In this document: positions 6,174-53,526 of the stretch, piece after piece
Layout: each line of letters opens with the position of its first letter
How positions within the stretch are numbered: position 1 is the first letter of the stretch
From: a virus
Lineage: Duplodnaviria; Caudoviricetes
Virus record (IMG/VR): IMGVR_UViG_3300035208_001463
Location: 1 to 64,000 of that record
Reading direction: 5' to 3' (one strand)
Length of the DNA: 64,000 nt
Notes under the pieces: model-generated
What the model was told of the DNA's origin: nothing
The model's input: the letters and a program-made list of their open reading frames with translations, nothing else
Database searches by the model: none
Position numbers and translations under genes: made by a program

Positions 6174-6175
6174 GG

Positions 6176-7351: not shown

Positions 7352-7364
7352 ATTATATATAATA

Positions 7365-9032: not shown

Positions 9033-9058
9033 AAATATATAAAGGAGATTGATACAAA

Positions 9059-9550: not shown

Positions 9551-9608
9551 TTCAACCTCTTTTTTCGGTTCGTTGTTCCGGAGAGAGGTGTTTAGGAGTT
9601 TAAAAAAC

Positions 9609-10402: not shown

Positions 10403-10810
10403 ATGATAACAATAGAATTTTCATTTGCGTGGTTATTTTGTGGTTTGATGGTGTTGATCATATTTGTGATGATGTCCGGAATTTTTGCAACCCCTAAAGA
10501 CACCGTTGCAATAATTATTATCGGAGTTGAGATTATTCTATTATTAGATTTATTTTGTGTATTTGGTTCTGCTTTATATATGAGTCATCCAACAAATGGA
10601 TATAAATTCTATGATAATCAATGGAATCAAGTGTGTAAAGAATATAATTATACAACATATTCTTTTGATGATGCGCAGCCATGTATAATGCCAACACCAC
10701 AAGACAATCCATACGAGAAGCAACCATTGCATCCTATAGCATGGATGTTTGAATTTGTGTGGGATTTGGGTAAAGTGGTAACTGGTGCGGTTCAATTTAA
10801 GGTGATGTGA
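10403..10810 (+). CDS. membrane protein
   Basis: Two hydrophobic segments; GGAGG RBS. Confidence 0.55.
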   Translation: MITIEFSFAWLFCGLMVLIIFVMMSGIFATPKDTVAIIIIGVEIILLLDLFCVFGSALYMSHPTNGYKFYDNQWNQVCKEYNYTTYSFDDAQPCIMPTPQDNPYEKQPLHPIAWMFEFVWDLGKVVTGAVQFKVM

Positions 10811-11078
10811 AAATGTTAAAAATAGAGCATAAAGCAATTATTGTAATTGGGTCGTTGCTTTCATTTTGGGTTGCATATTTTTCGTGTTTGTGCGGAACGA
10901 TGATCGGGTGTGCATTTGGTATTGCAATGATTGTTCTCATATGTCTTATAGATTATAGATTTAAGATTTCTCTTTTTGATTGGGGGAAAAGAGACGGAAA
11001 ATTAATATATGATGTTGATATCGTTGCTATGCAAAACGAACGTGGGGAAATAGAATTGAAATTTTTGAGGTAATATAA

Positions 11079-16369: not shown

Positions 16370-16729
16370 ATGAAAGACGAATATATAATATTATTTATAT
16401 TTAGTATTCTTTTAATATCATGTGGCATTTTATACATTAATTATGTAGATCGCGAAATTGAAAATAAATATGATAATAATATTGATTTCGGATATATGGA
16501 TCATTACGTAAAATTTCACATCTATCCAGAGAAGGAGGGAATAAGTGTTGCAGCGTGGGCAACAGATGATTTTCCTCCAACGAGCGGATACACAGACAAT
16601 AATTCCGAAATCGTATTCCCTATGATAAGCACCGCAGAGTATAATATACTTATAGATCAGAATAAGTGTAGTTATTATATTTATCCTGCTGAAGATTATT
16701 ATAATATTATTTGCGAAGGGGTAAAATGA
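16370..16729 (+). CDS. membrane-anchored hypothetical protein
   Basis: N-terminal TM helix. Confidence 0.55.
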   Translation: MKDEYIILFIFSILLISCGILYINYVDREIENKYDNNIDFGYMDHYVKFHIYPEKEGISVAAWATDDFPPTSGYTDNNSEIVFPMISTAEYNILIDQNKCSYYIYPAEDYYNIICEGVK

Positions 16730-17361
16730 TTATTCAAGGCGATTGTTTGGAGGTTATGAAAGATATTGAGGATAAATCCGTGGATTTGATTATAACAGAT
16801 ATACCTTATGGTGTAATCAATAGAAACTCCAACGGATTGAGAAGTTTAAATAAGGGTGTTGCCGACATTGTAGAGTTTTCTTTAAATTCGTTAATAAACG
16901 AATTTGTGAGATTGACTACAGGAAGTATTTACATATTTTGTAGTACTGAACAAGTATCTGATTTGCGGGGGCTAATGATATCGAAGGGATTATCAACGCG
17001 ACTTATGATATGGAATAAGACTAATCCGAGTCCGATGAACGGGCAATATATATGGTTATCAAGTGTGGAGTGTTGTGTATATGGAAAATTTAAGAATGCG
17101 ACATTCAACCAGCATTGTAAAGGATCTGTTTTAAATTTCCCGTGTGGTAGAAATAAATTACACCCTACAGAAAAACCATTAAAATTATTTGAATATTTAA
17201 TTGAGTCGTCTAGTAATAAAGGCGATGTTGTTTTAGATCCGTTCCTTGGTTCCGGCACAACAGCAGTTGCTTGTAAGAAATTAAAAAGACAATGTATCGG
17301 CATTGAAAAAGAAGAGAAGTATATTGAGATTTCAAAGAGGAGATTACAAAATGAATTATAA
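16726..17361 (+). CDS. beta-class N4/N6 DNA methyltransferase
   Basis: GDCLEVM, DLIITDIPY, HPTEKP, LDPFLGSGTT. Confidence 0.92.
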   Translation: MIIQGDCLEVMKDIEDKSVDLIITDIPYGVINRNSNGLRSLNKGVADIVEFSLNSLINEFVRLTTGSIYIFCSTEQVSDLRGLMISKGLSTRLMIWNKTNPSPMNGQYIWLSSVECCVYGKFKNATFNQHCKGSVLNFPCGRNKLHPTEKPLKLFEYLIESSSNKGDVVLDPFLGSGTTAVACKKLKRQCIGIEKEEKYIEISKRRLQNEL

Positions 17362-17711
17362 CTACACCCAAGAACAACACGATAAAATAATTGAACTGCT
17401 TTTGAAAATACAAATGAATATCAATAACACTGATATTATTGATGAATCGGTCAAAGACATTTATAAAATTCTTTATTCGGAAATAACAACCACACGAAAG
17501 GTTTATAATCCATTAACGAATAAATATTATAATATTAAATATTATGGAAAGATCGAGTAAGTATAAAGAACCCGGACAAATTAAGGGATTGTGGGGGAGG
17601 AAAGATGACACTCCGTGAAACATTTGATGGATTTACAATATTTGCGATATGGGGTATTGTTGCACTTTTAATTTGGTGGATTCCAAGAAAGTTGTGTGGG
17701 GTCGTATTAAT

Positions 17712-22496: not shown

Positions 22497-25106
22497 TTAT
22501 TTGCCTTCTTTAACTCTTTGTTCTCCAAGTTTGACATATTCGGGATTAAGTTCTATCCCTATATAAGTTCTATTGTGTAATTTACAAGCAACTCCTGTTG
22601 CTGAAGAACCAGAGAAAGGATCAATTACGGTTGCTGGAATCGGATCGAGATTGCAGGTACAGGTTGGTTTCCAATCAATTGTTCGTGTATTTTGTGCAAC
22701 ATGTCCTCCGGTTCGTTCTAGCCCTTGCGAATTTCCGGGAACAAGTTTATTCTTTTGATCATCATTTCCAATCGTAGGGCGGGTTATATAAGATTCTTTC
22801 TTTGTAACTCTAACCCAAGGAGCACCACATTTTGGGCATACCCTGTCGGATGTTCCTGCTAAAATTAGGGGTTCTACAAGTCTTACGGGGAATGAATTTC
22901 CGGTTATAAATGGTCTTCCTCCTCTTCTGGCAACAAATGTTCCATTTTCTACAGAAGGACACCATACAATTCCATCATATGAATAATTATCATGTATTAA
23001 AGAAGATGTGCTATTTTTAAAACATCTATCTTTTTTATTATGAGTTATAAATGCTGACCACATTCCCCCTCCACGCTGTGATAAAATACAAGATCTGTTT
23101 GTTCGAAGAAACATAGCTTGAATAATATCAAGCGGTTGTTTTGATTTTTGAGAGATTGTTATTCTACCATCTGGTCTTATATGTCCATCTCCGCCAACAA
23201 ATCCGGAAATAAACGATTCGATATATTCATCTGGAAGCATTATAAAATGTTCCGGTATCATATATTTATTTGGTATCATATGCCGAATTTTTTTTCTATA
23301 TTCTCCACTTATTTTCCATTCTTGTTCTTCCGATGTTGTGTTTTTATAGATTCGTTTTCTTTGCCATGTATTAAAATCAATTTTAAGAAATTCTAACAAG
23401 TATTGAATTCTTTTACATTTTTGCGGATTTTTTGAAACCGATTGTGATATACCTATTCCACCGTTATCTGTAAAATGTCCTTCTGATAATATCCATCCCA
23501 ATAATTCATAATATTCTTTTGGATCATTTGGAATGATTGGATTAAAATCGAGATGTGAAGATACTATAAATTTCATTCCATCTTTAAGGTTTGAAGCTTC
23601 TACTATTTTTGCAGGGTGTCGTCCATTTTTTATTTTTTTATCGCGTGTTGTTACTACACATCTATGATTTGGGGTCATGAGCATATTGCTAGATCTTCCA
23701 AAAACACTTATGAGATTTCCAGAATATCTATATGAAAAGATACTTTTTATTGGTTGTATTTCTAAACATGCTTTTTTCATATTATAGGTAAAAATTGGAG
23801 TTCCTTCTTTAATTTGATCATAACGTTTCCACCCCCCTATTGTAAGACATTCGGTTTCTGAATCTACACAAGCAAAATGTGCACCCTTATAACCTTTCGG
23901 ATTCACCACCAATGCCATTGGTTCCCCATCTTCATTATGAAGAAGTCCTTGCCATGTTTTGAAGAAGAAATCAGAATCGCGCATGTATCGAAGGCCAAGA
24001 CCATTTGGTTCGTAGCGCGCATTAAAACCGGTATATGTTTCGTTGCCGGTGCCGTCTTGTTTAGGAACCGGCGCTACTAATTCATCTGCAATTGTTTCAA
24101 ATTTTGCATATTGTGGGTCGTTACGATCATATTTTGTATTTTCATTAACTTTTTGTCGAACGACCCCGCGTGGGCGTTTATCTTTGTTATAAGATTCCGA
24201 TGATTTCTGCATTGTGGCTATGTGGTCGTAGTAGTATTTTGGAGATTTGGAAAATAAAAATACGTGTTCAATTGAAGAGCCGGGTCTGTCTGTTACCGAG
24301 GAGGGCATACTGTTTCTTTTAATCCAGACGAGATCACTACGGAGATACCAACCACCTTTTGATGCTTTTAACCATTCTTCATCTAGATCTTCTATTGTTC
24401 TTTTTGTATGTTTTGGAACTTCGTCCCATGTATTGTAATCTTGAAGTAAGGACGATTTAATTTTTTCTACAGTATACATTGTTTGTGGTGATGCTGCACC
24501 ATCCGCGCGCATAGAAAAGGCCAACATCCACGGAATTCCTATAATGTCTTTGGGTTTGATATTCCCGGCAGGTTTGTACCGTTTTTGCGGCCATGATGAT
24601 TCAGTATATGTTGCTTTCCCAGTATCTTTTTGACCAGCCCCAGTCCCCGCATACGAATCCCCAATATTCATCCAGAAAATACCATCATTTCTTAAAATTC
24701 TTTTTAGTTCGTGGAATATAGTTGTGAGATGGCGCACAAACATCTCTGGTGTTGGTTCTTGCCCAAGTTCACCTTTCCACGCCCCACATTTAGAACAGAA
24801 ATTTGAAGTGTCGGAACGGAATTGTTTTGTTTTTCCTATACTGTTTGTATTTCCAGTTGCAATGGTTTTTTCCGATCCAGCAGATACAAGAGTTGATAAT
24901 TCTCTCCCGTTTGTGCTTCCCTTTCTAATTATTGGTTTGGATATCCATTCGTGCTGACAATTTGGATCTCCATCCCAAACAATCGGTTCTGTCCCATAAC
25001 TCCGTAGTCCATAGTAAGGACTACTTGTTACAGCCATATGAACAGACTCGCTATCCATCCTCTTCAATACAGTTAAAGCATCGCCTTGAATAATCAATTT
25101 AAACAC
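22497..25106 (-). CDS. beta-class (likely N4-C) DNA methyltransferase containing an intein
   Basis: GDAL, VTSSPYYGLR, IGIPWMLAF, HFA|intein|SFP..L, DPFSGS, GIELNPEY. Confidence 0.9.
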   Translation of the reverse strand: MFKLIIQGDALTVLKRMDSESVHMAVTSSPYYGLRSYGTEPIVWDGDPNCQHEWISKPIIRKGSTNGRELSTLVSAGSEKTIATGNTNSIGKTKQFRSDTSNFCSKCGAWKGELGQEPTPEMFVRHLTTIFHELKRILRNDGIFWMNIGDSYAGTGAGQKDTGKATYTESSWPQKRYKPAGNIKPKDIIGIPWMLAFSMRADGAASPQTMYTVEKIKSSLLQDYNTWDEVPKHTKRTIEDLDEEWLKASKGGWYLRSDLVWIKRNSMPSSVTDRPGSSIEHVFLFSKSPKYYYDHIATMQKSSESYNKDKRPRGVVRQKVNENTKYDRNDPQYAKFETIADELVAPVPKQDGTGNETYTGFNARYEPNGLGLRYMRDSDFFFKTWQGLLHNEDGEPMALVVNPKGYKGAHFACVDSETECLTIGGWKRYDQIKEGTPIFTYNMKKACLEIQPIKSIFSYRYSGNLISVFGRSSNMLMTPNHRCVVTTRDKKIKNGRHPAKIVEASNLKDGMKFIVSSHLDFNPIIPNDPKEYYELLGWILSEGHFTDNGGIGISQSVSKNPQKCKRIQYLLEFLKIDFNTWQRKRIYKNTTSEEQEWKISGEYRKKIRHMIPNKYMIPEHFIMLPDEYIESFISGFVGGDGHIRPDGRITISQKSKQPLDIIQAMFLRTNRSCILSQRGGGMWSAFITHNKKDRCFKNSTSSLIHDNYSYDGIVWCPSVENGTFVARRGGRPFITGNSFPVRLVEPLILAGTSDRVCPKCGAPWVRVTKKESYITRPTIGNDDQKNKLVPGNSQGLERTGGHVAQNTRTIDWKPTCTCNLDPIPATVIDPFSGSSATGVACKLHNRTYIGIELNPEYVKLGEQRVKEGK
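22896..23870 (-). mobile_element. intein with LAGLIDADG homing endonuclease (325 aa) in the MTase
   Basis: Starts CVDSETECLT, block B TPNHR, LLGWILSEG and FISGFVGGDG, ends FITGN followed by Ser. Confidence 0.92.
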
Positions 25107-27134: not shown

Positions 27135-28483
27135 TCATGAACATTTACTCTTTCCACAATTCGTACAAATCCTACATCCGCCTTCCATAACATAATGGGG
27201 ATTATCACAACACTTCTCTTCATTCTTTCCAATCACGATTTCCTTGGGTTGGAGTGTTTTTATGGAGTCATCAATACATTTTCCTGTAATGTCAGCACAT
27301 GATTTTCCACACGATTTTTTATTATTCATGGCAGTCATACACTTTACTTTCGAGAATTGCTTTACATAATTTTCTGCCGGTGTCCCCCATTCAAGACCCG
27401 CAGAAATCGAACGTCCCATTGCTGCCATGTTTGCCTGACATCCACCAACACCATCACCCTCAACAAAGATCATTGTTGGTTCCTCTTTGTCGTGTCCTAT
27501 GATAACATAGAATTTCCCACATCCGCTATGAACTTTATAAATTATAGCAGGTGTTTTTGATTCGTAGAAAGTATTTTCAGTATCGATCCAATCTACTATC
27601 TTATCTTCTACCACGGGTTTCTTTAGGGATAGGACTTCATTTTCACGGCTTCCATTTCTATAAATTGTGAGTCCTTTGCACCCACTCTTCCATGCGTCGA
27701 AAATAATTTGTTTTATTTCTTCTTTGGTAGCAGAGTTTGGAAGGTTGATTGTCTTACTAATTGACATATCAACATTCTTTTGGAATGCTGCTTGCATTTG
27801 GACGTGCATTGAGGATGGGATGTCCATTGCGTTACTAAAGAGAGTTCTAAAAGATTCGGGTAAGAAATCAATATCACGAATAGTTCCTTTCTCGTGACAA
27901 TGCTTAACAATATCGTGCACTTCGTTTAAATCTCTATTATTGTCTTTTACAAACTTTTCTAGTGCTTTTTCAAATAACGGATGCACAATATAATGTTCTC
28001 CCATAGTATCCCTCCGCGTGTATACCCAATTGAACACGGGTTCAATACCCGACGACGCGCCTGCTATAATACTGATTGTTCCGGTTGGCGCTATTGAAGT
28101 TAATGAAGCGTTCATACGGTTTTGTTTGATGTTGGGGTTCTTACCTAACGATTCGGATACCGTGTGCGCGCGTTCATTAATGAATTTCATTACTTCTTCT
28201 GCAAGGTTGATTGCTTTTTGGCTGTTATAAGGAATACCCATTTTAATCAGTGCATCGTGGAATCCCATGATTCCAAGACCGATCTTGCGTGTACGTTTGG
28301 ATGCGAAATCAATTTCCGGGATTGGGTATTTGTTTTTATCGATTACATTGTTTAGGAACACCACTGCTGAATCGATTGTGGATTTGAGTTTGTCGTAGTC
28401 TATTGTGTTGTTTTTGATGTGGTTGGATAGGTTTATGCTGCCGAGATTGCAGCTCCCAAATGATTCCAATAACGCCTCTCCGC
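27135..28483 (-). CDS. nrdJ: class II ribonucleotide reductase, exon 2 (with TSCPD-like domain and Zn ribbon)
   Basis: After splicing reads (C)GEALLESFGSCNLGSINL; RKIGLGIMG, IAPTGTISII, SSGIEP, SISKTIN, KGLTIYR, GKSCAD, EGGCRICTNCG. Confidence 0.92.
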
Positions 28484-28756
28484 CTTGTAGTGAGGCTTTT
28501 TGTTACAGCAACGATGTTTTGTTGCAGGTGCGATCATTTCTGTCGCACTCTCATACTTTCATATGAGATCGGACTATATCATCAATGTCGCGTCTATAGT
28601 CTCTGAACCTTCATCTCATTGAGATGCTTGGCTGCTGATTGCCCAATCATTTCTATTCTTAAAACATTCACGTTTACCATTTCTGATTGCGTTGTAGTTA
28701 GAAATGCTTAAGGGTGTTCCAGCAATTTACGCGATTTTAAATCCGCACGGAATTTA
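28484..28756 (-). ncRNA. group I self-splicing intron (273 nt, no ORF) in nrdJ
   Basis: P AAUUGCUGGAA, Q AAUCAGCAGC, R GUUCAGAGACUAUA, S AUGAUAUAGUCC; P1 AAUCCGU/GCGGAUU with U.G at the 5' splice site; terminal G; removal restores NPCGE in frame. Confidence 0.93.
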
Positions 28757-29450
28757 ACGGATTGGGATCGAGTTCTCCATATTCTGGAGCAGGATTGTGT
28801 TTTTCGATGGTGTCTTTGAATAAAATACCCGGCTCCCCGTTTTTATAAATACCATCAACGATTAAACTCATAATCTCGTTGTTTGGAGATTTCATAAATT
28901 CATCAGTGAGTTTTACAGATATGTTGAAATTTGAAAGTTTTCCTTCGTGTTGTTTACATGTGATAAAGGTTTTGATTTCTGGGTGGGTGATATCAAGGCA
29001 TCCCATCATTGCGCCTCTTCGTGCACCTCCTTGTTTTACAACCTCTGTCATTGTATTAAAAACTTCCATGAAAGAAACCACACCGGAGGAAACACCATTG
29101 CGTTTTCCAACCCTGCTTCCAGCAGGACGGAGTTTTGAGAAATTGAATCCAACGCCTCCCCCCTTCGCAAAGATCTTTGCTGCGTTTTTGTTAGCATCAA
29201 AAATACTTTCAATGGTGTCTTCAACTGGTAATCTGAAGCAAGCCGACAGCATTGGGTTGTCTGTACCGGCGTTCATCAGCGTGGGGGAGTTGGGCAAAAA
29301 ATCTTTATCAAGCATTAATGTCATGAAACTAACAACTTGATTGGGGTCGTTTCCTATATAGTTTGCAACACGTTTACAAACATCTTCATAACAATGCTCT
29401 CCTTCCACACAATATCGTTCTTTAATGAGTTTATCTTCGTAAGTTCCCAT
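28757..29450 (-). CDS. nrdJ: class II ribonucleotide reductase, exon 1
   Basis: FLPNSPTLMNAG, LSACF, GGGVG..FS.LRP, QGGARRGAMM, NFNISV, GEPG; ends NP plus the first base of the Cys codon. Confidence 0.92.
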
Positions 29451-34936: not shown

Positions 34937-37900
34937 ATGCCCGAACTCTGTTTAACCCAATGCGAATATAGTTTTCATAATAATCAACCAATCATTCATC
35001 TCTTCGGTCGTGATTCCACAGGAATCACCCATCGCGTTGATGTTGTAGGGTTTAAACCTTATTTCTTTATCCCCGCTTCCGAATCCCCCAAGGTTCTCCC
35101 ACCCGCTGAACTAGATCCAAACGAATATTTTTCTATTCGTCACGAACCACTTGTTAAAGTTTTCGTACCGAAACCCACTGATATTAAAGACGCGCGCGAG
35201 AAATTTTCAAAACATTTTGAAGCAGATATTTTATATACCCTACGATTTTTGATCGATGTAAAAATCAAATCGGGTTTTTCATATACACAATCTCCCTGTA
35301 CCCCAGAAGATATAACTCCCAAAGAGTTGAATTTCCCTGCGCGCGTTTGTATTGTGGATATCGAATGCAGTGACGAAAATGGGTTTCCCGATGCAACCAA
35401 AGATCCAATTTTCTGTGTAACTGCTTATGATAGTTTCACCAAGCGATATATTACATTTGTCGTTGCTACGTTGCCAATTGATGAAACTCCCAAAGAAAAT
35501 GGATGTTTCAATACTAATCAGCATGATGTTTTAACATACATGGATGAAAAATCCCTTCTCGTGGATTTTGCCGAATATATTAAATCCACAGACCCCGATA
35601 TCATTACTGGGTGGAATTGTGTTCCAGAAGATACAATGGTTGATACACAAAATGGTCTTATTCCAATTAAGAATTTAAATAATGATATTGTTTTAAATAC
35701 CGGAGGGAAAGTTGTATCAGTTTATAATACTGGGGTAAAAAATACATCTCGTATAAAAACATCTATTGGTTGGAATTTTGTTGTTGGGGAAGATCATAGA
35801 ATAATGGTTTCCGAAATTCCACATGATCGCAATTATGTATGGGAGCATTGTGAACATTATGAATCGATATATACGACTCCCGAAAATATAACTTCAAATA
35901 GTATATTGCATGTTCCAATACGACAATATGAAAGCAATATTGGACTTGGGCTCGATCTTTTTAATTGTTATCGAGCAGGACTTATTTATTCCGACGGATC
36001 TAGACCGGATAAGTGGAGATTTAGATTTTACAATAAAAATACAAATCTCGTTGATAGATGCTGTGGAAAAAATCATAGGTGGTTTTCAAAAGGTGTTTGG
36101 TGCTCAAACATATTACAGCGAGATCTCAATGGGGCAGAAAATCTTATTCTTGTTGGTGATAAAAAACAACTTAATTTCGGTTTGCTATCTCGTTTGTCGG
36201 TTGAAGAATTTGGAGCGTTTGTAGCTGGGTGGTATGATGGAGATGGATATTCAGATAGTTTTGCTATAGGAGATCACACCATTGATATTAGGCACTTTCA
36301 GTTGTTTGCTGGTTTTGGAGCAATAACATCATCTTCGTGCAATATAAATTTAAGAATTTTATGCATAACAGAAAAATTATTGACGTGTATAAATATATTT
36401 TTGCAAAAAAAGGTAAAACCAAGAATTCATATAATGAAGAGAAAACGAGTTACTAGGAAAGATCATTTTAGATTTAATTTTAATAAAAATCTTACGAAGA
36501 TGTACTTACGTGTAAAAAATGTAAGGAGAGACACACCAAAAAACTGTTATGATATAACAACAACAGAACATAATTTTTCGATTGGTTGTATTGTGCACAA
36601 TTGTAATGATTTCGACGTGCCATATATTCTTGGTCGTTTTGATAAACTCGGGATTCCTCGTAATGCACTATCCCGTCTTAACACTACAAACGCAGATAGA
36701 GTAGAAATAAAAGGTCGTCAACTCTTTGATTTGCTTGCCGGTTACAAGCGAATGCACCTTGGTGAGCAACCCTCTTACCGTCTTGATGCAATTGCGGCAG
36801 AGGAACTTGGTAAACAGAAAATTCGATTTACTGGGAAAGTTTGCGACCTTTGGAAAAATGATCCAACAAATCTGGTTTATTATAATTTTACAGACGTGGA
36901 ATTGTGTGTGGGTATTGATGAGAAAGACGAAACGGTTGAATTCCACAGACATGTAGCTCAATATGCTGGTTGCCCTCTAGAAAAGACAACAAATTCGATG
37001 CCTATTATTGATATGCTGGTTTTGAGAGAGGCAAAAGAAAATGGATTTGTTCTTCCATCAAAAGCGGGTGTAATTAATACACAAGATTCATTTGAGGGTG
37101 CGACTGTTATTCCACCAGTAAAGGGAATGCATGAAAATGTTGTTATTCTTGATTTGAAATCATTATACCCAATGGCAATGATGACTATTAATGCATCTCC
37201 GGAAACGAAAGATCCAAATGGTGAATTGCACGCTCCAAATGGTGTCAGATTTAAAAAATCCCCCGATGGATTGGTTAGAAAGATTCAGGAAAAGTTCTTG
37301 CGCGAACGAGATGAAATGAAAAGGGAGAGAAATAAATATCCGTTCGATTCACACGAATATAAACTCCTGAATATGAAACAGGATGTTATTAAAGTTTGTA
37401 TGAATTCTTATTATGGTGTATCAGCGAATCCGATGTTTAGACTCAATGATCGCGATGTTGGATCTGCTATTACATCGGTTGGGCGCGCACTTTTGGAACA
37501 CAACAAGAAACTTGTTGAAGCAGAAGGGTTTAAGGTTATTTTTGGTGATACCGATTCAAATGGGGTTAAAATTCCAAAAAGTATCGGCCCCGAAAGTACA
37601 ATGATTATTGCAAAAGAACTTGAAAAACTTCTCAATGATAGTTATCCAATTTTCGCAAAAGAAGTTCTCAATGCAGATGTTTCCTATTTTTCCGTGAAAT
37701 TCGAAAAACTTTATGCGCGCTTCTTTAGCGGTGGGAAAAAGAAACGTTACGCCGGTTTACTCGTCTGGAAAGAAGGCGTGGACGCGCATAAAATTGATAT
37801 TGTTGGTTTTGAGACCAAGCGTTCTGATTCTCCAAAGGTTACGCGTGATGCAATGAAAACACTCATTAAGATGGTTCTCGAAGGCGAACCCTATGAAGAA

Positions 37901-38305
37901 ATCCGTTTTACTATTTCCGATGTTATTAGAAAATATCGCGCGGGGAAATATAGTCTTGACGAGATTGGAATTCCCGGTGGTATCGGAAAAGCACTCGAAG
38001 ATTACGATATCCAAGATGCACAGGTGCGCGCGGCAGTATATTCTAATACGTATCTCGGAACGAATTTTGGTAAAGGGAGCAAACCGAAACGTTTATATAT
38101 TAAGAATGTTACTTCGAAGTATCCACGCACGGATGTAGTTTGTTTTGAGTATGCTGATCAGATACCTCCGGAGTTCGTTGTGGATTTAGATACTATGTTG
38201 GAGAAGACATTACAATTGCCATTGACACGGATATTGGAGCCGTTGGGTTGGTCGTGGTCTTCATTTGATCCGGAAATCACAACGTTGTCGCAGTGGGGAA
38301 TTTAG
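34937..38305 (+). CDS. polB: family B DNA polymerase containing an intein
   Basis: ExoI DIEC, ExoII GWN|intein|CNDFD, ExoIII YNFTD, DLKSLYP, KVCMNSYYG, GDTDS, KKRYAG. Confidence 0.96.
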   Translation: MPELCLTQCEYSFHNNQPIIHLFGRDSTGITHRVDVVGFKPYFFIPASESPKVLPPAELDPNEYFSIRHEPLVKVFVPKPTDIKDAREKFSKHFEADILYTLRFLIDVKIKSGFSYTQSPCTPEDITPKELNFPARVCIVDIECSDENGFPDATKDPIFCVTAYDSFTKRYITFVVATLPIDETPKENGCFNTNQHDVLTYMDEKSLLVDFAEYIKSTDPDIITGWNCVPEDTMVDTQNGLIPIKNLNNDIVLNTGGKVVSVYNTGVKNTSRIKTSIGWNFVVGEDHRIMVSEIPHDRNYVWEHCEHYESIYTTPENITSNSILHVPIRQYESNIGLGLDLFNCYRAGLIYSDGSRPDKWRFRFYNKNTNLVDRCCGKNHRWFSKGVWCSNILQRDLNGAENLILVGDKKQLNFGLLSRLSVEEFGAFVAGWYDGDGYSDSFAIGDHTIDIRHFQLFAGFGAITSSSCNINLRILCITEKLLTCINIFLQKKVKPRIHIMKRKRVTRKDHFRFNFNKNLTKMYLRVKNVRRDTPKNCYDITTTEHNFSIGCIVHNCNDFDVPYILGRFDKLGIPRNALSRLNTTNADRVEIKGRQLFDLLAGYKRMHLGEQPSYRLDAIAAEELGKQKIRFTGKVCDLWKNDPTNLVYYNFTDVELCVGIDEKDETVEFHRHVAQYAGCPLEKTTNSMPIIDMLVLREAKENGFVLPSKAGVINTQDSFEGATVIPPVKGMHENVVILDLKSLYPMAMMTINASPETKDPNGELHAPNGVRFKKSPDGLVRKIQEKFLRERDEMKRERNKYPFDSHEYKLLNMKQDVIKVCMNSYYGVSANPMFRLNDRDVGSAITSVGRALLEHNKKLVEAEGFKVIFGDTDSNGVKIPKSIGPESTMIIAKELEKLLNDSYPIFAKEVLNADVSYFSVKFEKLYARFFSGGKKKRYAGLLVWKEGVDAHKIDIVGFETKRSDSPKVTRDAMKTLIKMVLEGEPYEEIRFTISDVIRKYRAGKYSLDEIGIPGGIGKALEDYDIQDAQVRAAVYSNTYLGTNFGKGSKPKRLYIKNVTSKYPRTDVVCFEYADQIPPEFVVDLDTMLEKTLQLPLTRILEPLGWSWSSFDPEITTLSQWGI
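35618..36601 (+). mobile_element. intein with LAGLIDADG endonuclease (328 aa) in PolB ExoII motif
   Basis: Starts CVPEDT, GEDHR, AGLIYSDG and VAGWYDGDG, CYDITT, ends IVHN followed by Cys. Confidence 0.93.
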
Positions 38306-38492: not shown

Positions 38493-38574
38493 TGGTGGAT
38501 ACCCTAGTGGTCAACGGGGCGAGATTCAAAATCTCGTGATTAGTTCTTCGAGGGTTCGACTCCCTCTCCACCAA
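38493..38574 (+). tRNA. tRNA-Leu(CAA)
   Basis: Acceptor TGGTGGA/TCCACCA plus discriminator A; D-arm CCC/GGG with TGG loop; anticodon stem CGAGA/TCTCG with TT-CAA-AA loop; long variable region; T-arm GAGGG-TTCGACT-CCCTC; TATA at 38461. Confidence 0.88.
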
Positions 38575-38638: not shown

Positions 38639-38678
38639 GAATTATAAAAAATAGAATTATAAAAAATAGAATTATAAA
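38639..38678. repeat. 15-bp tandem repeat (about 2.7 copies)
   Basis: GAATTATAAAAAATA x2 plus GAATTATAAA. Confidence 0.8.
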
Positions 38679-38687: not shown

Positions 38688-38942
38688 TTAATTTACGTCT
38701 TTATCTTCTTTTTCTTTCGGCTGCTGCGCGCGCGGGTACAGACCTGTGAATGTTTGCGTGTCCAGCGAATCAGGAAGAAGTTTATCTTCGATAATCAGGA
38801 TGATAAGTTCATTAAGCACTTCTGCATAGATCGGTGCTTCTGCTGTGCGCACCGCGCTGTTGAGCGCACTGATAAGGCGTTCTTTCTTCTGTACATACTT
38901 CAATACTTTCTTCATTTCATCTTCAGTATAAGATTCAGTCAT
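38688..38942 (-). CDS. hypothetical protein
   Basis: MTESYTEDEMKK...; GGAGG RBS. Confidence 0.6.
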   Translation of the reverse strand: MTESYTEDEMKKVLKYVQKKERLISALNSAVRTAEAPIYAEVLNELIILIIEDKLLPDSLDTQTFTGLYPRAQQPKEKEDKDVN

Positions 38943-39075
38943 ATTTATCGGATTCCTCCAGTTTTTTTGTTTTTTTCTCAATTGCCAATTCTGCAATTGT
39001 AGCCAAATTTAAACCGCGCGCGCGTCCGGCTTCGGCGATCTTTCTTTCGATTTTAACAACTGCATCGCGTGTCAT
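38935..39075 (-). CDS. ribbon-helix-helix (CcdA-like) regulator (46 aa, not in ORF track)
   Basis: Hand translation MTRDAVVKIERKIAEAGRARGLNLATIAELAIEKKTKKLEESDKYD; beta-helix-GLNL-helix pattern. Confidence 0.6.
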   Translation of the reverse strand: MTRDAVVKIERKIAEAGRARGLNLATIAELAIEKKTKKLEESDKYD

Positions 39076-39082
39076 GATTTAC

Positions 39083-39109
39083 ACATATGTTCCATTTGGA
39101 AACATATGT
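39083..39109. promoter_or_regulatory. operator-like inverted repeat between divergent promoters
   Basis: ACATATGTTCCA-TT-TGGAAACATATGT. Confidence 0.5.
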
Positions 39110-39178
39110 ATATAATAACAACCAACTACTATATATACCTTTTGTTTGATATTAGTTTATGAGAGAGGTGCATTTTAC

Positions 39179-39517
39179 ATGTTTGAGAAAGTTACGACTT
39201 ACCTCAAGAGCGCATACACCAAGGGTATGGAGCTGATTCACGACTCCGAGGCAATCGGTGAGGCAACCCTCGCCGGTATCGGGATGGTCGTCGGCGGGGC
39301 CATATTCATCGTCATAGGTATATTCATGGTAGGAACGCTGTTCAACAGCCTCCCGATCCTCACGGGGATCATGAATACAACCATGAGTAATGCACAGAGC
39401 AATGTTTCTCTCGCGTTTACCTTCTTGGGTATTGCACTCTTCCTGTTGGGAGCTATCGTTCTGCTCCTCGAATTCATCCCGGTTATCCGGATTTTCGTAG
39501 GTGGAGAACGCCAGTAA
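39179..39517 (+). CDS. candidate major capsid protein of spindle-shaped-virus type
   Basis: Polar leader, then EATLAGIGMVVGGAIFIVIGIFMV, loop with NTT and NVS sequons, second hydrophobic helix; GC-richer codons than neighbours, GAGGTG RBS, own promoter and terminator. Confidence 0.6.
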   Translation: MFEKVTTYLKSAYTKGMELIHDSEAIGEATLAGIGMVVGGAIFIVIGIFMVGTLFNSLPILTGIMNTTMSNAQSNVSLAFTFLGIALFLLGAIVLLLEFIPVIRIFVGGERQ

Positions 39518-39527
39518 ATTCGGTTTG

Positions 39528-39554
39528 ACAAATGGAGACAAATTCTCCATTTGT
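39528..39554. terminator. hairpin between convergent genes
   Basis: ACAAATGGAGA-CAAAT-TCTCCATTTGT. Confidence 0.7.
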
Positions 39555-40446: not shown

Positions 40447-41139
40447 CTATTCACTCCCAAAATGTTCTTCGTCGTGGCAATCTTCGCAATAAGTTACCCC
40501 GTTGTCGATGTTCCACAATTCTTTACAATTTTTAGCATCTTGTAATGTTTTAATATTATTTTCTTTTAATATTATAGAAAATAATTTTATGTGATGTGCT
40601 TCTAAGTATCCGCCACGAGTTTTACATTTTTGACAGGTATAATTATCTCTTTCAAATATTTTATGTATCCATTCTCTATATTCAAACGATTCACGTATTG
40701 CTTTACTCAATGGCGTCGTATAAACAAATCCCATCAAAGCATGTTTAATTAATCGTTCCTCGCTCATTCTTTTTCTGGTTTCTATTGGGAAATGATATCC
40801 CAATTTTTTAGTATTTCCCAACTGGGCGTTATGCATTTTTATATGTGCATCGAAAGTATGATGTTGACCAAACATAGGATTATTTTCTCCCATCTTGGAT
40901 TTACTTATATTTTCACAATGTTCTTTGGAACGTGGTGGTTTTGGTTTGTTTTTTAAAGCAACGCTTTGATTATATTTTGTTAATTCCGAAGAAGGGATTC
41001 CTTTGTTCCAAGAGGTTTGTCCTTTATGTGACTTACTCATTTTATCTATAGTAGATTGCGATGCGCGCTTTCCAATATGAGATAATCTATTCTTCTCAAT
41101 CCACAACTTATATTTTTCCGGGTCTTTAGGAGGTGGCAT
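40447..41139 (-). CDS. NUMOD3-repeat HNH endonuclease paralogue 2
   Basis: MPPPKDP, SWNKG, RDNYTCQKC, LEAHHI, NGVTYCEDCH. Confidence 0.88.
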   Translation of the reverse strand: MPPPKDPEKYKLWIEKNRLSHIGKRASQSTIDKMSKSHKGQTSWNKGIPSSELTKYNQSVALKNKPKPPRSKEHCENISKSKMGENNPMFGQHHTFDAHIKMHNAQLGNTKKLGYHFPIETRKRMSEERLIKHALMGFVYTTPLSKAIRESFEYREWIHKIFERDNYTCQKCKTRGGYLEAHHIKLFSIILKENNIKTLQDAKNCKELWNIDNGVTYCEDCHDEEHFGSE

Positions 41140-41141
41140 TT

Positions 41142-41870
41142 TTATGTTTCCTTTGAGTGTCTTTTATCATGACAATCGACACACAATGTGACACCATTTT
41201 CAATATCCCACAAGTCCTTGCATTTTAATGCATCCTCAACAGTTTGAATATTATTCTCCTGTATAATTTGAGCAAACGTTTTTGGGTCGTGGTGACCTTC
41301 TAGATCTCCTCCATGTTTCCCGCAATCACGACAGGTATAATTATCTCTTTTAAATACGGCACCCCTCCATTTATCATACTCGGGTAATCTTCGTATTACC
41401 TTATCAAGTTCCGTTATACCACCTTTATAATTGTGATGATCGGAACCACGATGTGCGGATTCCCTCATTTTAAGTTTTGTTTCCTCCGTGTGGATGTAAC
41501 CAAGTGTTCTAGTATTTCCGATTAAAGATTCACTTATCTTCTCACACGTTTCAATAGATGATTTTGTTCCAATGTGTGCAACACGAATTTTATTCTTTGT
41601 TTCTTCAGATAATTTTACACCTTTACGCGGAGATGTTTTTCCTTTATTAGCCTCGCTTAAATGTTTTCGATGTTCTGGCGACTTGGGTTTATTTTTAAGT
41701 CCTTCACTAATATGTTTGATTTCTTCTTCCGATTTTATACGTCCTTCATTAGATTTGCTTATCTTGTCACAATGTTCTAAAGATAATGGAATCCCACGTC
41801 TTTTTGCGGCTGCTTCATCTATATGTAGTTTCCATAACCTATATCGTTCCGTTCCTTTTTGTGGTGGCAT
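41142..41870 (-). CDS. NUMOD3-repeat HNH endonuclease paralogue 1
   Basis: MPPQKG, HTEETKLKM repeats, NYKGG, RDNYTCRDC, LEGHH, NGVTLCVDCH. Confidence 0.88.
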   Translation of the reverse strand: MPPQKGTERYRLWKLHIDEAAAKRRGIPLSLEHCDKISKSNEGRIKSEEEIKHISEGLKNKPKSPEHRKHLSEANKGKTSPRKGVKLSEETKNKIRVAHIGTKSSIETCEKISESLIGNTRTLGYIHTEETKLKMRESAHRGSDHHNYKGGITELDKVIRRLPEYDKWRGAVFKRDNYTCRDCGKHGGDLEGHHDPKTFAQIIQENNIQTVEDALKCKDLWDIENGVTLCVDCHDKRHSKET

Positions 41871-42506
41871 TTATAACACCGGTTCCCATGCTTCTGAAAA
41901 CTCTCGCTCTTTATATAATTCGGCCAAACCAGTTACCTGTTTTAATCTTAATACTTCGTCTGGTTCCATCCCCAATTCGTGACCAATCTTTTCGTTGCTC
42001 CATCTTCTACGTGATAATTCTTGAACAATTTCACTCATACCAGAAACACTATGTTTCCCTCTCGCTCGGTTGTGCCGTATTGTGGAAGCCATACGATCTC
42101 CCCGCGCTGTGCGTTCGTTATTTACTTTCACAATGGGTAAATAACCATGCGTGCGCTTTATAACTTCTTTGCTTTCTTTACCAACTCTACTTCTATGGAA
42201 TCCGTCTACAACTTCATAGACATTGTTGGTTTCCCACGAAACCACTGGTTGCGTGTATCCGTCTTCAACAATCGAGGTTTCGAGTAATTTCATCTCCGGA
42301 TTTGCAACATTATTGGGATTATAATCGTTCTTTCCTACGATATCCGATTTAACCCATAGAACCAGATCAACGGGTTCGTTTTTCATCGGGGATGCGTCGT
42401 GAAGAATTGTTCTTATTTGGTTAAGTAAAGATAGTTGTTCATCTTCAGAATATTTAGACAATTCTTCTACAATTTCTCGCGTTTTATTAATTAAATCAGA
42501 TTCCAT
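41871..42506 (-). CDS. ibrB: IbrB/YbdM-like ParB-family protein
   Basis: EPVD.V.WV, NDYNPN.VA.PEM.LL, DGYTQP, VDGFHR, MASTIRHNRARGKH, LGMEPDEVLRLKQ. Confidence 0.88.
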   Translation of the reverse strand: MESDLINKTREIVEELSKYSEDEQLSLLNQIRTILHDASPMKNEPVDLVLWVKSDIVGKNDYNPNNVANPEMKLLETSIVEDGYTQPVVSWETNNVYEVVDGFHRSRVGKESKEVIKRTHGYLPIVKVNNERTARGDRMASTIRHNRARGKHSVSGMSEIVQELSRRRWSNEKIGHELGMEPDEVLRLKQVTGLAELYKEREFSEAWEPVL

Positions 42507-43696
42507 TTTTCTCTCCTCGTTTTCATGAGTTTCAAATATTTTTCATATGCAGATGTTTTTGTAGGGGCGAATGATAGTGTGCGGCACCAGTAATCTAATC
42601 GTAGAAGCGTTTTACAAATCCGTTTCCATGATGGATGATTATCAGTGCTTCCACAATCTCCGGGTTGTGTATCGGGAATTGTAATACCTCTATCTTTATA
42701 CCATTTTAAATATACCGATATTTTGTTTTTATAATGTTCTGAAGTTGACGTTGGCATTGAATTGAGAAGATGCATAGCGAAAGACTGCCAAGTGTGATTT
42801 GGTGGAAGTATAATTTGGTTAATACCCAATACGTTTCCTTTTTCTTTTGCATAAATGGCTCCCATATTCGCCCCGTTAACGCGCGCAACAATTTTGCCCC
42901 AAGTTTCTGGTTCGATTGCATGAAATAACCATAATCCTTGACGCTGTTCAGAACCATACGGTTCACAAATTCGCATTTTGTGTAGAGATAACCCCGCGCG
43001 ACTCATTTGATCATAGAGTTTATTGTATGGAAGATTCGTTTTTCCATGAAAGGTCCATATATCTTCTGTAGTCCAATCATAGATTGGAAATACGTTACAA
43101 ACATTATTGTTGGTTGTGGTATAGCATTTGTTATCATATGAGTGTTTAACCCCAGCATTTATAGTTCTCCATCTGTTTAGAGATTCTAGTGTACGGATGC
43201 CTATAAATGAGGCGCTGGGTGTAACATTTGAATAATAATGAAGAAACGCGGGAACGAATTCTTCAAATGTCATAGCATATGTATAGAAGGGAAAATGCGA
43301 TGTATCTGTAATAGCAATTTCGGGTGGATGTCTGACCCATATGGATTCTTTTCCTTTCTCCCACGAAATCCACTCGGGTTCAAATTGTGAAACCGCATTA
43401 ACAGTTTTTAAAGGAAGGCAAACCCAAAATGGAATTATGAGATCTTTATAAAGGTTAAACATTTCTGCGACATGAACAATTGTATATTTATATTGTGCTT
43501 CCCAATCGACAAATAAAACAGCAAATTTTTGGTTGCGTTTTTTTGCTTCTGCTGCTACGAGATGAAACATTACAGTGGAATCTTTACCACCAGAAAAGCT
43601 TACACAGATTTTCGGGAACGTATCGAAAGCCCACGCGATGCGTCGCTGTGCGGCTTCTAGTACATTGATACCAAGAGGTTGTTTCCAAGAAGACAT
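42491..43696 (-). CDS. ibrA: IbrA/YbdN-like PAPS-reductase-family protein (DUF3440)
   Basis: SFSGGKDS, GIRTLESLNR, PIYDW...DIW, MRICEPYG.EQR.GL, PSWKRICK. Confidence 0.88.
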   Translation of the reverse strand: MSSWKQPLGINVLEAAQRRIAWAFDTFPKICVSFSGGKDSTVMFHLVAAEAKKRNQKFAVLFVDWEAQYKYTIVHVAEMFNLYKDLIIPFWVCLPLKTVNAVSQFEPEWISWEKGKESIWVRHPPEIAITDTSHFPFYTYAMTFEEFVPAFLHYYSNVTPSASFIGIRTLESLNRWRTINAGVKHSYDNKCYTTTNNNVCNVFPIYDWTTEDIWTFHGKTNLPYNKLYDQMSRAGLSLHKMRICEPYGSEQRQGLWLFHAIEPETWGKIVARVNGANMGAIYAKEKGNVLGINQIILPPNHTWQSFAMHLLNSMPTSTSEHYKNKISVYLKWYKDRGITIPDTQPGDCGSTDNHPSWKRICKTLLRLDYWCRTLSFAPTKTSAYEKYLKLMKTRREKWNLI

Positions 43697-49791: not shown

Positions 49792-51022
49792 CTAAAATGC
49801 AGCGATGATACCCCAAACTTTAGGTTGGGGAGGAGCGCGTTCACCACCAAAAAGTATTTATACTAATAGTGTTAATATATGAATGTGATTAGGACAATTA
49901 AGTTGAAACTTAATGTTTCTTCTGATGATAAGCAATGTCTCCTGCAAACAATGAGAGATTACACTGTAGCTTTTAACATCTGCTCAAATTGGGGTTTTAA
50001 TAACCACACTGTCAGCAAGATTGACTGTCACAATGCTACTTATAAAATTATTCGACAATCTGTTCCTAATCTACCCTCATCGCTCGTACAAGGTGCAAGA
50101 GATGTTGCATGTGAATCTTTGAAAGCAGTAAAATGCCATTTCAAACCCATTCGAAAAGAACATTCTGCAATGCGATATAACCAAAGAGTTATCCGTATCT
50201 GCCTTGACTCCGGGTATGCAACCATCTCCACATCCAATGGTAGAATTAAGGCCACGTTTTGTATCCCGGAATATTACCGACAATATCTTTCGTGGAAGAT
50301 TAAATCCTCTAATATATCCCTTCGTAAGAACGATGATATTTTCTACTTGCATTGCCAACTTGAAATCGATACCCCGAAGGTAACTACGGAGCGGTCGGTT
50401 ATTGGAATAGACAGAGGCATTGTTAATATTGCAGTATGCTCTAATAATGTTTTCTTTAATGCTAGGGCGATGAAGAATACGCGTGCAAAATATGCATATC
50501 TCCGAGCCGAATTACAGTCTAAAGGCACTCGATCCGCTAAACGAAAGTTGAAAAAACTTTCTGGTCGAGAAAGACGGTTTGTGACTGATGTTAATCATTG
50601 TATTTCGAAGCAAATTATTCAATTCCCATATACAATCCTTGCACTTGAAAACCTTACTAAAATACGCGTACAGAAACGTAGAAGTAAGAAGTTTAATATG
50701 AAATTAAATAGATGGGCTTTTTATGAACTAGAACGGTTTATTCGATACAAGGCAGAGAGTCTTGGTAAACTGGTTATTACTGTTGATGCTCGTTATACCT
50801 CGCAGAAGTGTTCTGCCTGTGGTCATATCTATAAAGGCAACCGGAATGGTTCTCAATACCTCTGTCGTAACTGCGGTTTTGAACTCCATGCTGACCTCAA
50901 TGCTTCCCGCAACATCGCTCAAGATGGTATATCTGTTTTGAGTAGGCTGCCCGTCAACCAGCCAAATGTAGCATGTCCTTGACATAGTTACAAGCCCCGT
51001 CGTTTACGGTGGGGCGGTTGAC
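49792..51022 (+). mobile_element. IS200/IS605-family (IS1341-type, tnpB-only) element
   Basis: Left-end hairpin CCCCAA-ACTTTAGG-TTGGGG (49811-49830); right end GCCCCGTCGTTTACGGTGGGGCGGTTGAC; no tnpA; exact left boundary inferred. Confidence 0.85.
49879..50982 (+). CDS. tnpB: RNA-guided endonuclease TnpB
   Basis: RTIKLKL, RuvC-I GIDRG, RuvC-II LENL, TSQKCSACG..CRNCG, RuvC-III HADLNASRNI. Confidence 0.95.
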   Translation: MNVIRTIKLKLNVSSDDKQCLLQTMRDYTVAFNICSNWGFNNHTVSKIDCHNATYKIIRQSVPNLPSSLVQGARDVACESLKAVKCHFKPIRKEHSAMRYNQRVIRICLDSGYATISTSNGRIKATFCIPEYYRQYLSWKIKSSNISLRKNDDIFYLHCQLEIDTPKVTTERSVIGIDRGIVNIAVCSNNVFFNARAMKNTRAKYAYLRAELQSKGTRSAKRKLKKLSGRERRFVTDVNHCISKQIIQFPYTILALENLTKIRVQKRRSKKFNMKLNRWAFYELERFIRYKAESLGKLVITVDARYTSQKCSACGHIYKGNRNGSQYLCRNCGFELHADLNASRNIAQDGISVLSRLPVNQPNVACP

Positions 51023-52486: not shown

Positions 52487-53526
52487 ATAAAATAATTCTC
52501 TTTATATTTATACTTGTTGGTGCTTTTCTTCGTATTTTTAATGTGGGGTATCAATGTTTGTGGACGGAGGAAATTTACAGTCTCGAAATATCTTCTTTGT
52601 CAATCACAGACTTAATATTTAAATCTTTCGCTTCTGATTTCAATCCTCCCATTTACTATATCTTCGCGCACATATCACTTATTTTAACGAGTGGATTAGA
52701 TTTTTCGATTAGATACCCATCGGTAATAACAGGGATATTATTAATTCCTGTGATGTATTGGCTTGGTGCTACGTATAAAGATGAGGCGACGGGAATTTAT
52801 TGCGCGGGTCTTACAACCATACTACTTCCATTCATATATTACGCTCAATTCGGACGCGCGTATTCAATGTCTTTATTGTTCTTCGCGCTCGCGTTGGTTT
52901 ATTATATTAAAGTGAAAAACGAAAACACACGAACCGATAGAATTTTGTTTTGGGCGTTGGCAGTAATAAACGTGTGGATACATCTGTTTGCTGCAATACC
53001 CATTGGATTAATGTGTGTAGACCTATTACTTGACCGAAAACATTGGTTGTGTGGAATTGGTGCAGGAATATGTAGTTTGCCGCTTCTAGGTATGCTGGTG
53101 AATGTTTTAAGCACACGTACACACCAAGCGTTTAATTATGGTGCTTCAATTATTCAAATGGTTGTGCTGACACCAATGGAATTTTTCAACACTATATTCT
53201 TGAATATCTTTGTATTGGCGGGTGTAGGCGCGTGGTATGATAAAAATCCCATTAAAAAGAATTTAATAGTGATAACGGTAATTACGTTGATTGTGGGGGT
53301 TGTGGGATCTTGTTATACTCCGTTCTTCCCACGATACTATATGACGGTATCGTTGATTATTCTGTTGATGTGTTCGGCGGGTATTGTAGAATTGACGAAA
53401 ACATGTTCCAAAAAAATAGGTAAAAATTTAGATTATATTATTCTGATAATACTATTTGTGGTATTTATCTGGATGGAATTTCCTAATTTGGTGAGTCATT
53501 ATACTATAATGCAGTATGAGTGTTAA
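52474..53526 (+). CDS. GT-C (PMT/ArnT-like) membrane glycosyltransferase
   Basis: LRIFNVGYQCLWTEE, DFNPPIYY, IRYPS, YYAQFGRAYS, PRY; multiple TMs; frame extends upstream of track start 52543 to an ACG codon. Confidence 0.8.
   Translation, partial: TKTLNKIILFIFILVGAFLRIFNVGYQCLWTEEIYSLEISSLSITDLIFKSFASDFNPPIYYIFAHISLILTSGLDFSIRYPSVITGILLIPVMYWLGATYKDEATGIYCAGLTTILLPFIYYAQFGRAYSMSLLFFALALVYYIKVKNENTRTDRILFWALAVINVWIHLFAAIPIGLMCVDLLLDRKHWLCGIGAGICSLPLLGMLVNVLSTRTHQAFNYGASIIQMVVLTPMEFFNTIFLNIFVLAGVGAWYDKNPIKKNLIVITVITLIVGVVGSCYTPFFPRYYMTVSLIILLMCSAGIVELTKTCSKKIGKNLDYIILIILFVVFIWMEFPNLVSHYTIMQYEC

Follow-up and report, generated by a model that had tools for sequence, protein, structure and literature searches.

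The window analysed here (64,000 nucleotides) covers the first 64 kb of one IMG/VR virus record of 112,520 bp, IMGVR_UViG_3300035208_001463, which carries no terminal repeats. At 39179-39517 on the plus strand it contains a gene coding for a 112-aa membrane protein with two hydrophobic helices, P0001, which is a candidate for the major virion (capsid) protein of the virus on account of its translation, its hydrophobic segments, its AlphaFold2 (AF2) model, its conservation and its GC content at third codon positions (GC3). An earlier examination of the window alone (the sequence-only reading) had described this protein as a leader ending in DSEA, followed by EAT, a hydrophobic helix, a glycosylatable loop with NTT and NVS and a second hydrophobic helix, and this layout is borne out by the translation of the open reading frame (ORF) and by its hydropathy. 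The N-terminal region is 28 residues long and of acidic/amphipathic character, its leader ending in ...HDSEA before the IGEAT motif; the hydrophobic helices cover approximately residues 29-58 and 78-103, the loop between them carries two glycosylation sequons (NTT at 66-68 and NVS at 75-77), and the C-terminal end has a GGERQ tail. An AF2 model built from a 10-sequence alignment is a hairpin (pLDDT 65) with helices at residues 2-20, 25-61 and 67-107 and a loop at 62-66, in which a break at HDSE separates the amphipathic N-terminal helix (2-20) from the first hydrophobic one; the model obtained with a 5-sequence alignment is one long helix. Two bigger antisense ORFs (39152-39550 and 39238-39531) were discarded as shadows of the P0001 gene.

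Several signals surround this gene. A ribosome-binding site (GAGAGAGGTG, 39161-39170, plus strand) lies 8 nt before the ATG and is identical in four relatives (L004, L005, L006 and L008), and upstream of it a TATA-like box (TATATATA, 39130-39137, plus strand), represented in relatives by the conserved block ACTA-TATATATAC, is likely, judging from its sequence, to serve as the archaeal promoter of the gene. Downstream, between convergent genes, there is a terminator-like hairpin (39528-39554) with an 11-bp perfect stem, a 5-nt loop and a T-rich run after it, whose predicted RNA fold has an energy of -19.2 kcal/mol (z = -4.69; none of 200 shuffled sequences was as stable) and which is also present in L006. 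The strong ribosome-binding site and the terminator described previously are, thus, both confirmed. On the other side, the P0001 gene is faced by a divergent 46-aa ORF (38935-39075, minus strand), and between the two genes lies an imperfect palindrome (39080-39112; 12-nt arms at 39080-39091 and 39101-39112, 92% complementary) that is a candidate operator, kept in L004 and L006 and degenerate in L005 and L008. The divergent gene and the palindrome of the earlier proposal stand. The small ORF is conserved (80-83% in L004-L006, 56% in L008); its possible assignment to the ribbon-helix-helix regulators comes from a sequence pattern, a Pfam scan of the ORF having given no match.

A relative of 138,951 bp (G001:C3, the same as IMGVR_UViG_3300035208_001349), which is syntenic with the contig at 65-83% nucleotide identity, allowed the comparison of 96 orthologue pairs, and codon bias was analysed over 149 genes. 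P0001 is the most conserved of all these pairs (97.3% identity, the median being 67.6%), and its gene, with a GC content of 0.50, has the highest GC3 of the whole set (0.646, median 0.337). The GC-richer codons already pointed out in the sequence-only reading are therefore real, and they are common to relatives, since the high GC3 of the hairpin gene recurs in L004-L006, L036, L038 and L039. Against three relatives, synonymous and non-synonymous codon changes numbered 31/0, 37/1 and 44/3, respectively, every non-synonymous change falling within residues 11-20; because of these proportions, the codon record indicates that P0001 is under very strong long-term purifying selection with selected codon usage, and that it is not a recent transfer. 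This combination of conservation and codon bias is what one would expect of a structural protein made in abundance, and not of a holin or an exclusion factor. No other gene is as conserved or as biased in its codons, and the purifying selection on it is extreme. P0001 behaves as a major virion protein would, and we consider it moderately probable, from sequence evidence, that a large dsDNA archaeal virus has it as its major virion (coat) protein and that it belongs to the hydrophobic alpha-helical hairpin type found in spindle-shaped viruses.

The P0001 family is narrow. An exhaustive profile search covering 1.8 billion representatives, together with a word-based search, returned near-identical copies of P0001 and only 7 distant relatives (E 5e-7 to 8e-4), all of the same architecture. 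A block of the form N-[TS]-T ... N-[VI]-x-x-A-F-T-x-x-G is conserved family-wide, with N66-T67 nearly invariant, and the N-terminal amphipathic helix is kept across the family, including members with a 15-aa N-terminus, whereas the GEAT motif is confined to the closest relatives and absent from the distant ones. This bears on the earlier suggestion that the protein is N-terminally processed, as happens in SSV1 VP1, the mature form of which we take to start at a Glu after removal of an N-terminal propeptide. Processing of P0001 before Glu28 appears doubtful and unproven, because only close relatives have GEAT, while the N-terminal helix is kept family-wide, as would not be expected of a leader that is discarded.

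Three small elements carry members of the family: a contig of a Methanoperedenaceae metagenome-assembled genome (MAG) (L013), a 14-kb metagenomic contig (L014) and an integrated element (G063). In all of them the hairpin gene, often as 2-3 tandem paralogues, heads a module with an MCM or integrase gene upstream, and it is followed by 4-6 small genes, then by a gene for a P-loop ATPase, and further on by those for proteins of 700-900 aa and for a DUF2341 lectin-like protein. This order parallels that of TPV1, in which gp15 (a 112-aa membrane protein) precedes gp16-19, the gp20 ATPase, gp21 and the gp22/23 lectins. L014 also encodes, at 986-1654 (plus strand), a 222-aa hairpin paralogue with an insertion of about 110 aa in the inter-helix loop, rich in Thr, Asn, Gly and sequons, which stands in tandem with a 135-aa form and is reminiscent of the VP1/VP3 pair. 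The G063 element (G063:C1, approximately 943.8-956 kb, L048/L049) is a TPV1-like element integrated in a closed 3.28-Mb genome of the class of Methanoperedenaceae, and contains an integrase, the hairpin protein, four small genes, a gp20-like ATPase and proteins of 665, 729 and 730 aa. Small elements with the family were found in Methanoperedenaceae and in 6 of the 151 sampled genomes of that class.

Larger and more diverged relatives were also identified: L036 (47.4 kb), L038 (45.8 kb) and L039 (58 kb), whose hairpin gene matches the family model with E values between 1e-13 and 3e-18 and sits within a morphogenesis block. This block also has homologues of several proteins of the studied contig: the g173 ATPase, g172, the g179/g180 membrane proteins, the protein g195 with eight transmembrane (TM) segments, the giants g187/g196 (PKD), the GT-C-like g95 and the DUF3821 protein g201. 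In five of these relatives (L013, L014, G063, L036 and L038) the hairpin gene lies upstream of a gp20-like ATPase and of large adhesin genes. In the studied contig, the P0001 gene has moved, with its flanking HNH nuclease, next to PolB. This nuclease, an HNH/NUMOD-type homing-endonuclease-like gene that converges on the P0001 gene (39575-40054, minus strand), is paralogous to the NUMOD3/HNH genes at 40447-41870, and an HNH gene stands on the opposite strand beside the hairpin gene in three diverged lineages (the one in the window, L036 at 16598-17395 and L038 at 5680-6429, both on the minus strand). The HNH/NUMOD gene may have mobilised the capsid gene to the PolB side. Among close relatives, L011 and L012 are found in deposited MAG bins under the labels 'Patescibacteria group bacterium' and 'archaeon', probably as binning artefacts.

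The only morphogenesis-type ATPase of the contig is g173 (contig 79157-80134), Walker-A motifs being otherwise confined to AAA_24 and the helicases. Against 50,697 phage and archaeal-virus records its sole match was TPV1 gp20 (tblastn E 4e-4; blastp 1.6e-9), and in profile comparisons (hhalign) it reached 88.5% with TPV1 gp20 over 188 columns and 99.3% with the L013/L014 ATPase; some of its relatives carry PF05707 (Zot). Profile comparison of nine other families of the module with TPV1 and L013/L014 proteins gave no match, so that the ATPase was the only one matched. The module, putatively devoted to the virion and located at 82-104 kb of the contig, contains conserved membrane proteins (8-TM and 2-3-TM) and PKD/DUF3821 surface proteins of giant size (1526 and 1282 aa). 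Inside it, adjoining the 8-TM protein and the 1282-aa PKD protein, lies g194 (L002 12722-12979, minus strand, corresponding to contig 94722-94979), an 85-aa two-TM protein whose gene is the second most conserved one (95%). It may be a second major virion protein; as a paralogue of P0001 it was rejected, since it resembles neither the family nor any known capsid protein. In the window, a protein with seven hydrophobic segments (7-TM; 52543-53526, plus strand) is 35% identical to the product of L038 7714-8817 (PF13231 PMT_2, GT-C), which is encoded two genes downstream of the L038 hairpin gene; the 7-TM protein itself has no Pfam match, and it could possibly participate in glycosylation of virion proteins.

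The 139-kb relative is circularly permuted with respect to the contig, and the 126 nt with which it begins are repeated 20 nt from its end, because of which it is probably a closed genome. Neither genome yielded genes for a head-tail particle. Pfam and PHROGs scans of every contig ORF of at least 300 aa found no TerL, portal or HK97 capsid gene, a Pfam scan of ten ORFs specific to the 139-kb relative found no head-tail gene (these ORFs encode glycan-synthesis enzymes, methylases, a radical-SAM enzyme and a restriction-like nuclease, and one of 510 aa has no match), and six-frame searches of the 112-, 139- and 58-kb records with PF03237, PF03354, PF05065 and PF04860 gave nothing above threshold; all these searches operate at the level of sequence profiles. 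Of the large proteins of the contig that remain unannotated (at least 400 aa), one is disordered and K/E/P/Q-rich, one has Zn-ribbon repeats and the others are membrane proteins, and none of them has Walker motifs. The lack of HK97, portal, terminase and tail genes that had been remarked on for 64 kb consequently extends to the rest of the 112.5-kb contig and to the 139-kb and 58-kb relatives. The genome is larger than 64 kb, as had been anticipated, and does encode its own PolB and ribonucleotide reductase. The 139-kb relative also has sugar-nucleotide and glycan genes that are not in the 112-kb contig (G001:C3 111.9-118.6 kb, L026/L027; L021 13306-17769), coding for AsnB, a UDP-glucose dehydrogenase, a GFO/IDH oxidoreductase, a DegT aminotransferase and two GT4 transferases.

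P0001 resembles the capsid or presumed capsid proteins of known spindle-shaped viruses in its architecture. Among these are TPV1 gp15 and the PAV1-type proteins of Thermococcales viruses ('Sethviridae'/'Osirisviridae' in PMC12934983). Both gp15 and P0001 are 112 aa long and share a charged N-terminal helix, a first TM helix, a loop with Pro and an N-x-[ST] sequon, a second TM helix that opens with an [AS]-F-[TS]-x-x-G motif and a short basic C-terminus, and the relatives of P0001 fill the gp15 slot, upstream of the gp20-like ATPase and the large lectin/adhesin genes, in MCM-encoding elements. They differ in that no BLAST or HMMER match links P0001 to gp15, in the host lineage (the P0001 family is found in mesophilic Methanosarcinia-type elements, unlike the Thermococcales viruses) and in the virus genome, which here is 5-6 times bigger and encodes PolB, ribonucleotide reductase and a primase in place of MCM only. 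With VP1/VP3 of the Fuselloviridae (PF06281; SSV1, SSV19) P0001 shares the two-helix hydrophobic hairpin and the sequon-bearing loop, as well as the precursor-like N-terminal extension of SSV1 VP1 (...TKG-EATNIGVLLG..., compared with ...AIG-EATLAGIGMVVG... in P0001) and, in its relatives, the tandem paralogues; in contrast, the conserved C-terminal fuselloviral block (LVPLFYIL...) is absent from P0001. His1 VP21 (PF25665; Halspiviridae) also has two hydrophobic helices and an N-x-[ST] loop, although it lacks an N-terminal helix, and the His1 genome, of 14.5 kb, encodes a protein-primed PolB.

Profile comparisons (hhalign) of the P0001 family with His1 VP21 gave 2-13.5%, the best value over 55 columns and equal to the scores of the fuselloviral and TPV1 families against VP21, and those with a 10-sequence fuselloviral VP1/VP3 alignment gave 5-10%, over the first TM helix only. 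The known spindle families score alike against each other in this set-up (12%, 11.5% and 0.5%), and 16 other membrane proteins of SSV1, His1 and TPV1 score at most 1% against the P0001 family. In the ESM Atlas, VP1_VP3 and His1_capsid were the two nearest named clusters to P0001 (0.85) and were not returned by a control two-TM protein from the same genome, a placement that we regard as a lead only. The match to VP1/His1-type proteins claimed in the sequence-only reading holds, therefore, for the small size and the two-helix hairpin with its glycosylatable loop, but not for sequence homology (no HMMER match, hhalign 1-13%), and direct homology of P0001 to SSV1 VP1 or His1 VP21 is not demonstrable from these sequences. 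Other kinds of membrane protein fit P0001 no better, as no better match to pilins or host membrane proteins was found. P0001 has two TM helices and no globular domain, and no pilin family matched it in Pfam, which sets it apart from archaeal type IV pilins, in which a short, basic class III signal peptide and a single N-terminal hydrophobic helix precede a beta-rich globular domain; nor does it look like a holin, the only PHROG holin match having an E value of 0.19 and the neighbours being PolB, a tRNA, the small regulator and HNH nucleases.

A number of observations weigh against the assignment of P0001 as a spindle-type coat protein. HMMER found no match of P0001 to PF06281, PF25665 or any PHROG, its Pfam scan gave only sub-threshold DUF7139 and DUF6463, six of its relatives had no hmmscan match to PF06281, and six-frame searches of the whole contig with PF06281 (0 candidates) and PF25665 found none; likewise, P0001 matched no PDB sequence and, by tblastn, none of the 50,697 phage and archaeal-virus records. 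The profile-profile link to an 18-member TPV1 gp15 family is weak and unstable, reaching 80.6% (E 1.3e-5) once and 30%, 10% and 5% when the same family was aligned in other ways. Moreover, an unrelated Cys-rich two-TM protein, g140 (contig 67361-67585), reached 78% against the P0001 family; it was rejected as a second capsid paralogue, this score coming from an alignment of TM segments only, and because of it the hhalign figures are not proof of homology. The P0001 model is of low confidence, and Foldseek and VIA fold searches returned generic hairpins only, so that the structural comparison that had been proposed was uninformative. Furthermore, TPV1 gp15, which we presume to be the capsid protein of that virus, is annotated in its record as 'membrane protein'. 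Finally, beyond the hairpin protein and the ATPase the contig shares no morphogenesis gene with TPV1 or the small elements, and in the contig the P0001 gene adjoins PolB, approximately 40 kb from the ATPase and outside the putative virion module.

Taking P0001 as the coat protein, its gene would be transcribed as its own unit from the strong TATA promoter, possibly gated through the palindrome by the small divergently encoded DNA-binding protein, and its translation would be made efficient by the strong Shine-Dalgarno site and the atypical G/C-ending codons. The protein is predicted to enter the host membrane as a two-helix hairpin with the short loop, which carries the N-T-[TS] sequon found throughout the family and is probably glycosylated, facing outward. 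Many copies would then assemble laterally into a shell round the genome, and from its conservation and codon bias we infer that P0001 is abundant in the virion. The Zot/TPV1-gp20-like ATPase would join this assembly, as would the conserved membrane proteins and the PKD/DUF3821 surface giants encoded at 82-104 kb, and virions would be released without a terminase-portal packaging machine. The particle would be non-icosahedral and, by analogy with TPV1 and PAV1, most likely spindle-shaped.

An unlikely alternative, which nonetheless deserves some weight, is that the virus is enveloped, pleomorphic or otherwise novel in shape, that P0001 is abundant in its envelope or internal membrane without forming the shell of a spindle capsid, and that another protein condenses the genome. 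The candidates for this role would be g183, a disordered K/E/P/Q-rich protein of 451 aa that is of low complexity and basic/acidic, and the two-TM g194, which at 95% is second of the 96 pairs in conservation. Such a particle would accommodate the fact that the link to TPV1-like viruses consists of the hairpin protein and the ATPase only, whatever else the 82-104 kb module contains being unique, and also the large glycan-synthesis islands of the 139-kb relative and the presence of PF05707 (Zot), an extrusion/assembly ATPase type, in relatives of g173. However, hairpin proteins of such size and hydrophobicity form the shell in every spindle virus studied (PMC9894754, PMC12934983), the small elements that carry the family are organised like TPV1, which, as PAV1, is spindle-shaped (PMC12934983), and g194 resembles no known capsid protein. 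It is quite improbable that P0001 is a non-structural membrane protein of the infected cell, acting in holin- or viroporin-like egress, superinfection exclusion or membrane remodelling. Small two-TM proteins with a charged C-terminus are typical of holins, a holin family being also the PHROG match of P0001 at the weakest level, and in this contig the gene is a monocistronic one that lies close to replication genes and has a putative repressor of its own. But holins and exclusion proteins are among the fastest-evolving phage genes, whereas P0001 is the slowest one here and has the strongest codon bias; there is no lysin gene nearby, and in relatives the gene lies inside the morphogenesis module, with tandem paralogues in the small elements, one of them with a sequon-rich loop like VP1/VP3.

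Less probable still, and in our view very improbable, is a head-tailed (Caudoviricetes) or other icosahedral virus in which the hallmark genes are too divergent or lie on missing sequence, P0001 being an accessory protein. CheckV-type completeness estimates of 82%, 84% and 74% would leave room for such genes, a PHROG 'tail protein' domain (galactose-binding) matches the 1282-aa protein, the nearest PolB sequences come from haloarchaeal tailed viruses, and the recombination module is phage-like: it is located at 8220-12047 (plus strand) and consists of an AAA_24 ATPase, a DUF669 protein and a Cas4-domain exonuclease. Yet the permutation and overlapping ends of the 139-kb relative imply that little or nothing is missing, TerL, portal and HK97 profiles all failed to find a counterpart in the Pfam, PHROG and six-frame searches, and the unannotated contig proteins of at least 400 aa, being disordered, Zn-ribbon or membrane proteins without Walker motifs, offer no candidate.

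Other features of the window concern replication and mobile elements. PolB (34937-38305, plus strand, 1122 aa) has a large insert of intein-like look between its exonuclease and polymerase domains, an N6/N4 DNA methylase of 869 aa (22497-25106, minus strand) carries a LAGLIDADG domain, and an intein is found in a B12-radical-SAM gene of the 139-kb relative. Ribonucleotide reductase is split over two ORFs (27135-28469 and 28737-29450, both on the minus strand). Downstream of PolB there is a tRNA-Leu(CAA) gene (38493-38574, plus strand) followed by three 15-bp direct repeats (GAATTATAAAAAATA) at 38639-38678. Beyond the HNH gene that converges on P0001, an operon at 40447-43696 (minus strand) encodes a PAPS-reductase/DUF3440 protein and a ParB-like protein (IbrA/IbrB-like), followed by the tandem NUMOD3-HNH nucleases. 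Two TnpB/Cas12f-like (OrfB_IS605) genes were also found, at 49879-50982 (plus strand) and in L003 at 6376-7752 (minus strand).

The surface domains of the contig (PKD, CarboxypepD_reg and DUF3821) are typical of methanogen envelopes. Predicted spindle viruses of methanogens have been described before, namely Methanosarcina spindle-shaped virus 1 (MSSV1, Eurekaviridae; PMC12451623) and the contigs C1359 and C1697 (PMC9796341). They were recognised only through capsid proteins similar to those of SSV1 and His1 by HHpred, MSSV1 having two capsid-protein copies, and their small genomes (8.2 kb in C1697) set them apart, according to their descriptions, from the virus studied here. Large spindle viruses with an RNA-primed PolB are known from ANME-1: the Itzamnaviridae and Tepeuviridae, with genomes up to 72.6 kb, euryarchaeal (Halobacteriota) hosts, split structural and enzymatic arms, hydrophobic helical capsid proteins and auxiliary genes for PAPS reductase, nucleotide metabolism and asparagine synthase (PMC9894754). 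By description they resemble the present virus, as the contig has PolB, ribonucleotide reductase and PAPS reductase and its 139-kb relative AsnB, and they differ in size (112-139 kb here, at most 72.6 kb in PMC9894754).

The proposal that the window could represent a new lineage is supported by its hairpin family and by the size of its genomes (112-139 kb), although the idea of a large PolB-encoding spindle virus was already in PMC9894754; a literature search gave no description of such a lineage in methanogens or Methanoperedens. We tentatively propose, with slightly less than even confidence, that P0001 and its relatives form a new family of hairpin capsid proteins, and that the 45-139 kb genomes constitute a new lineage, of family rank or higher, of non-icosahedral (probably spindle-shaped) archaeal viruses, evolutionarily linked to the small TPV1-like proviruses of Methanosarcinia. 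This lineage would be defined by P0001, the Zot/gp20-like ATPase, the g179/g180 membrane proteins, the GT-C transferase and the PKD/DUF3821 giants. The P0001 family would provide a capsid marker that is missed by current Pfam and PHROG models, and it is because these models miss it that contigs like the present ones are labelled 'unclassified' or mis-binned.

Spindle-shaped viruses infect only archaea, and a shell made up of sliding hydrophobic hairpins is believed to allow a single small protein to package genomes that differ widely in size. If the assignment of P0001 as their coat protein is correct, the genomes described here would be about twice as large as the largest spindle-virus genome of PMC9894754 (72.6 kb), and the spindle group would extend to mesophilic methane-cycling archaea, in viruses with a self-sufficient replication and glycosylation apparatus. 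The sliding-hairpin capsid design would then scale to genomes of approximately 140 kb with their own replication, nucleotide and glycan metabolism.

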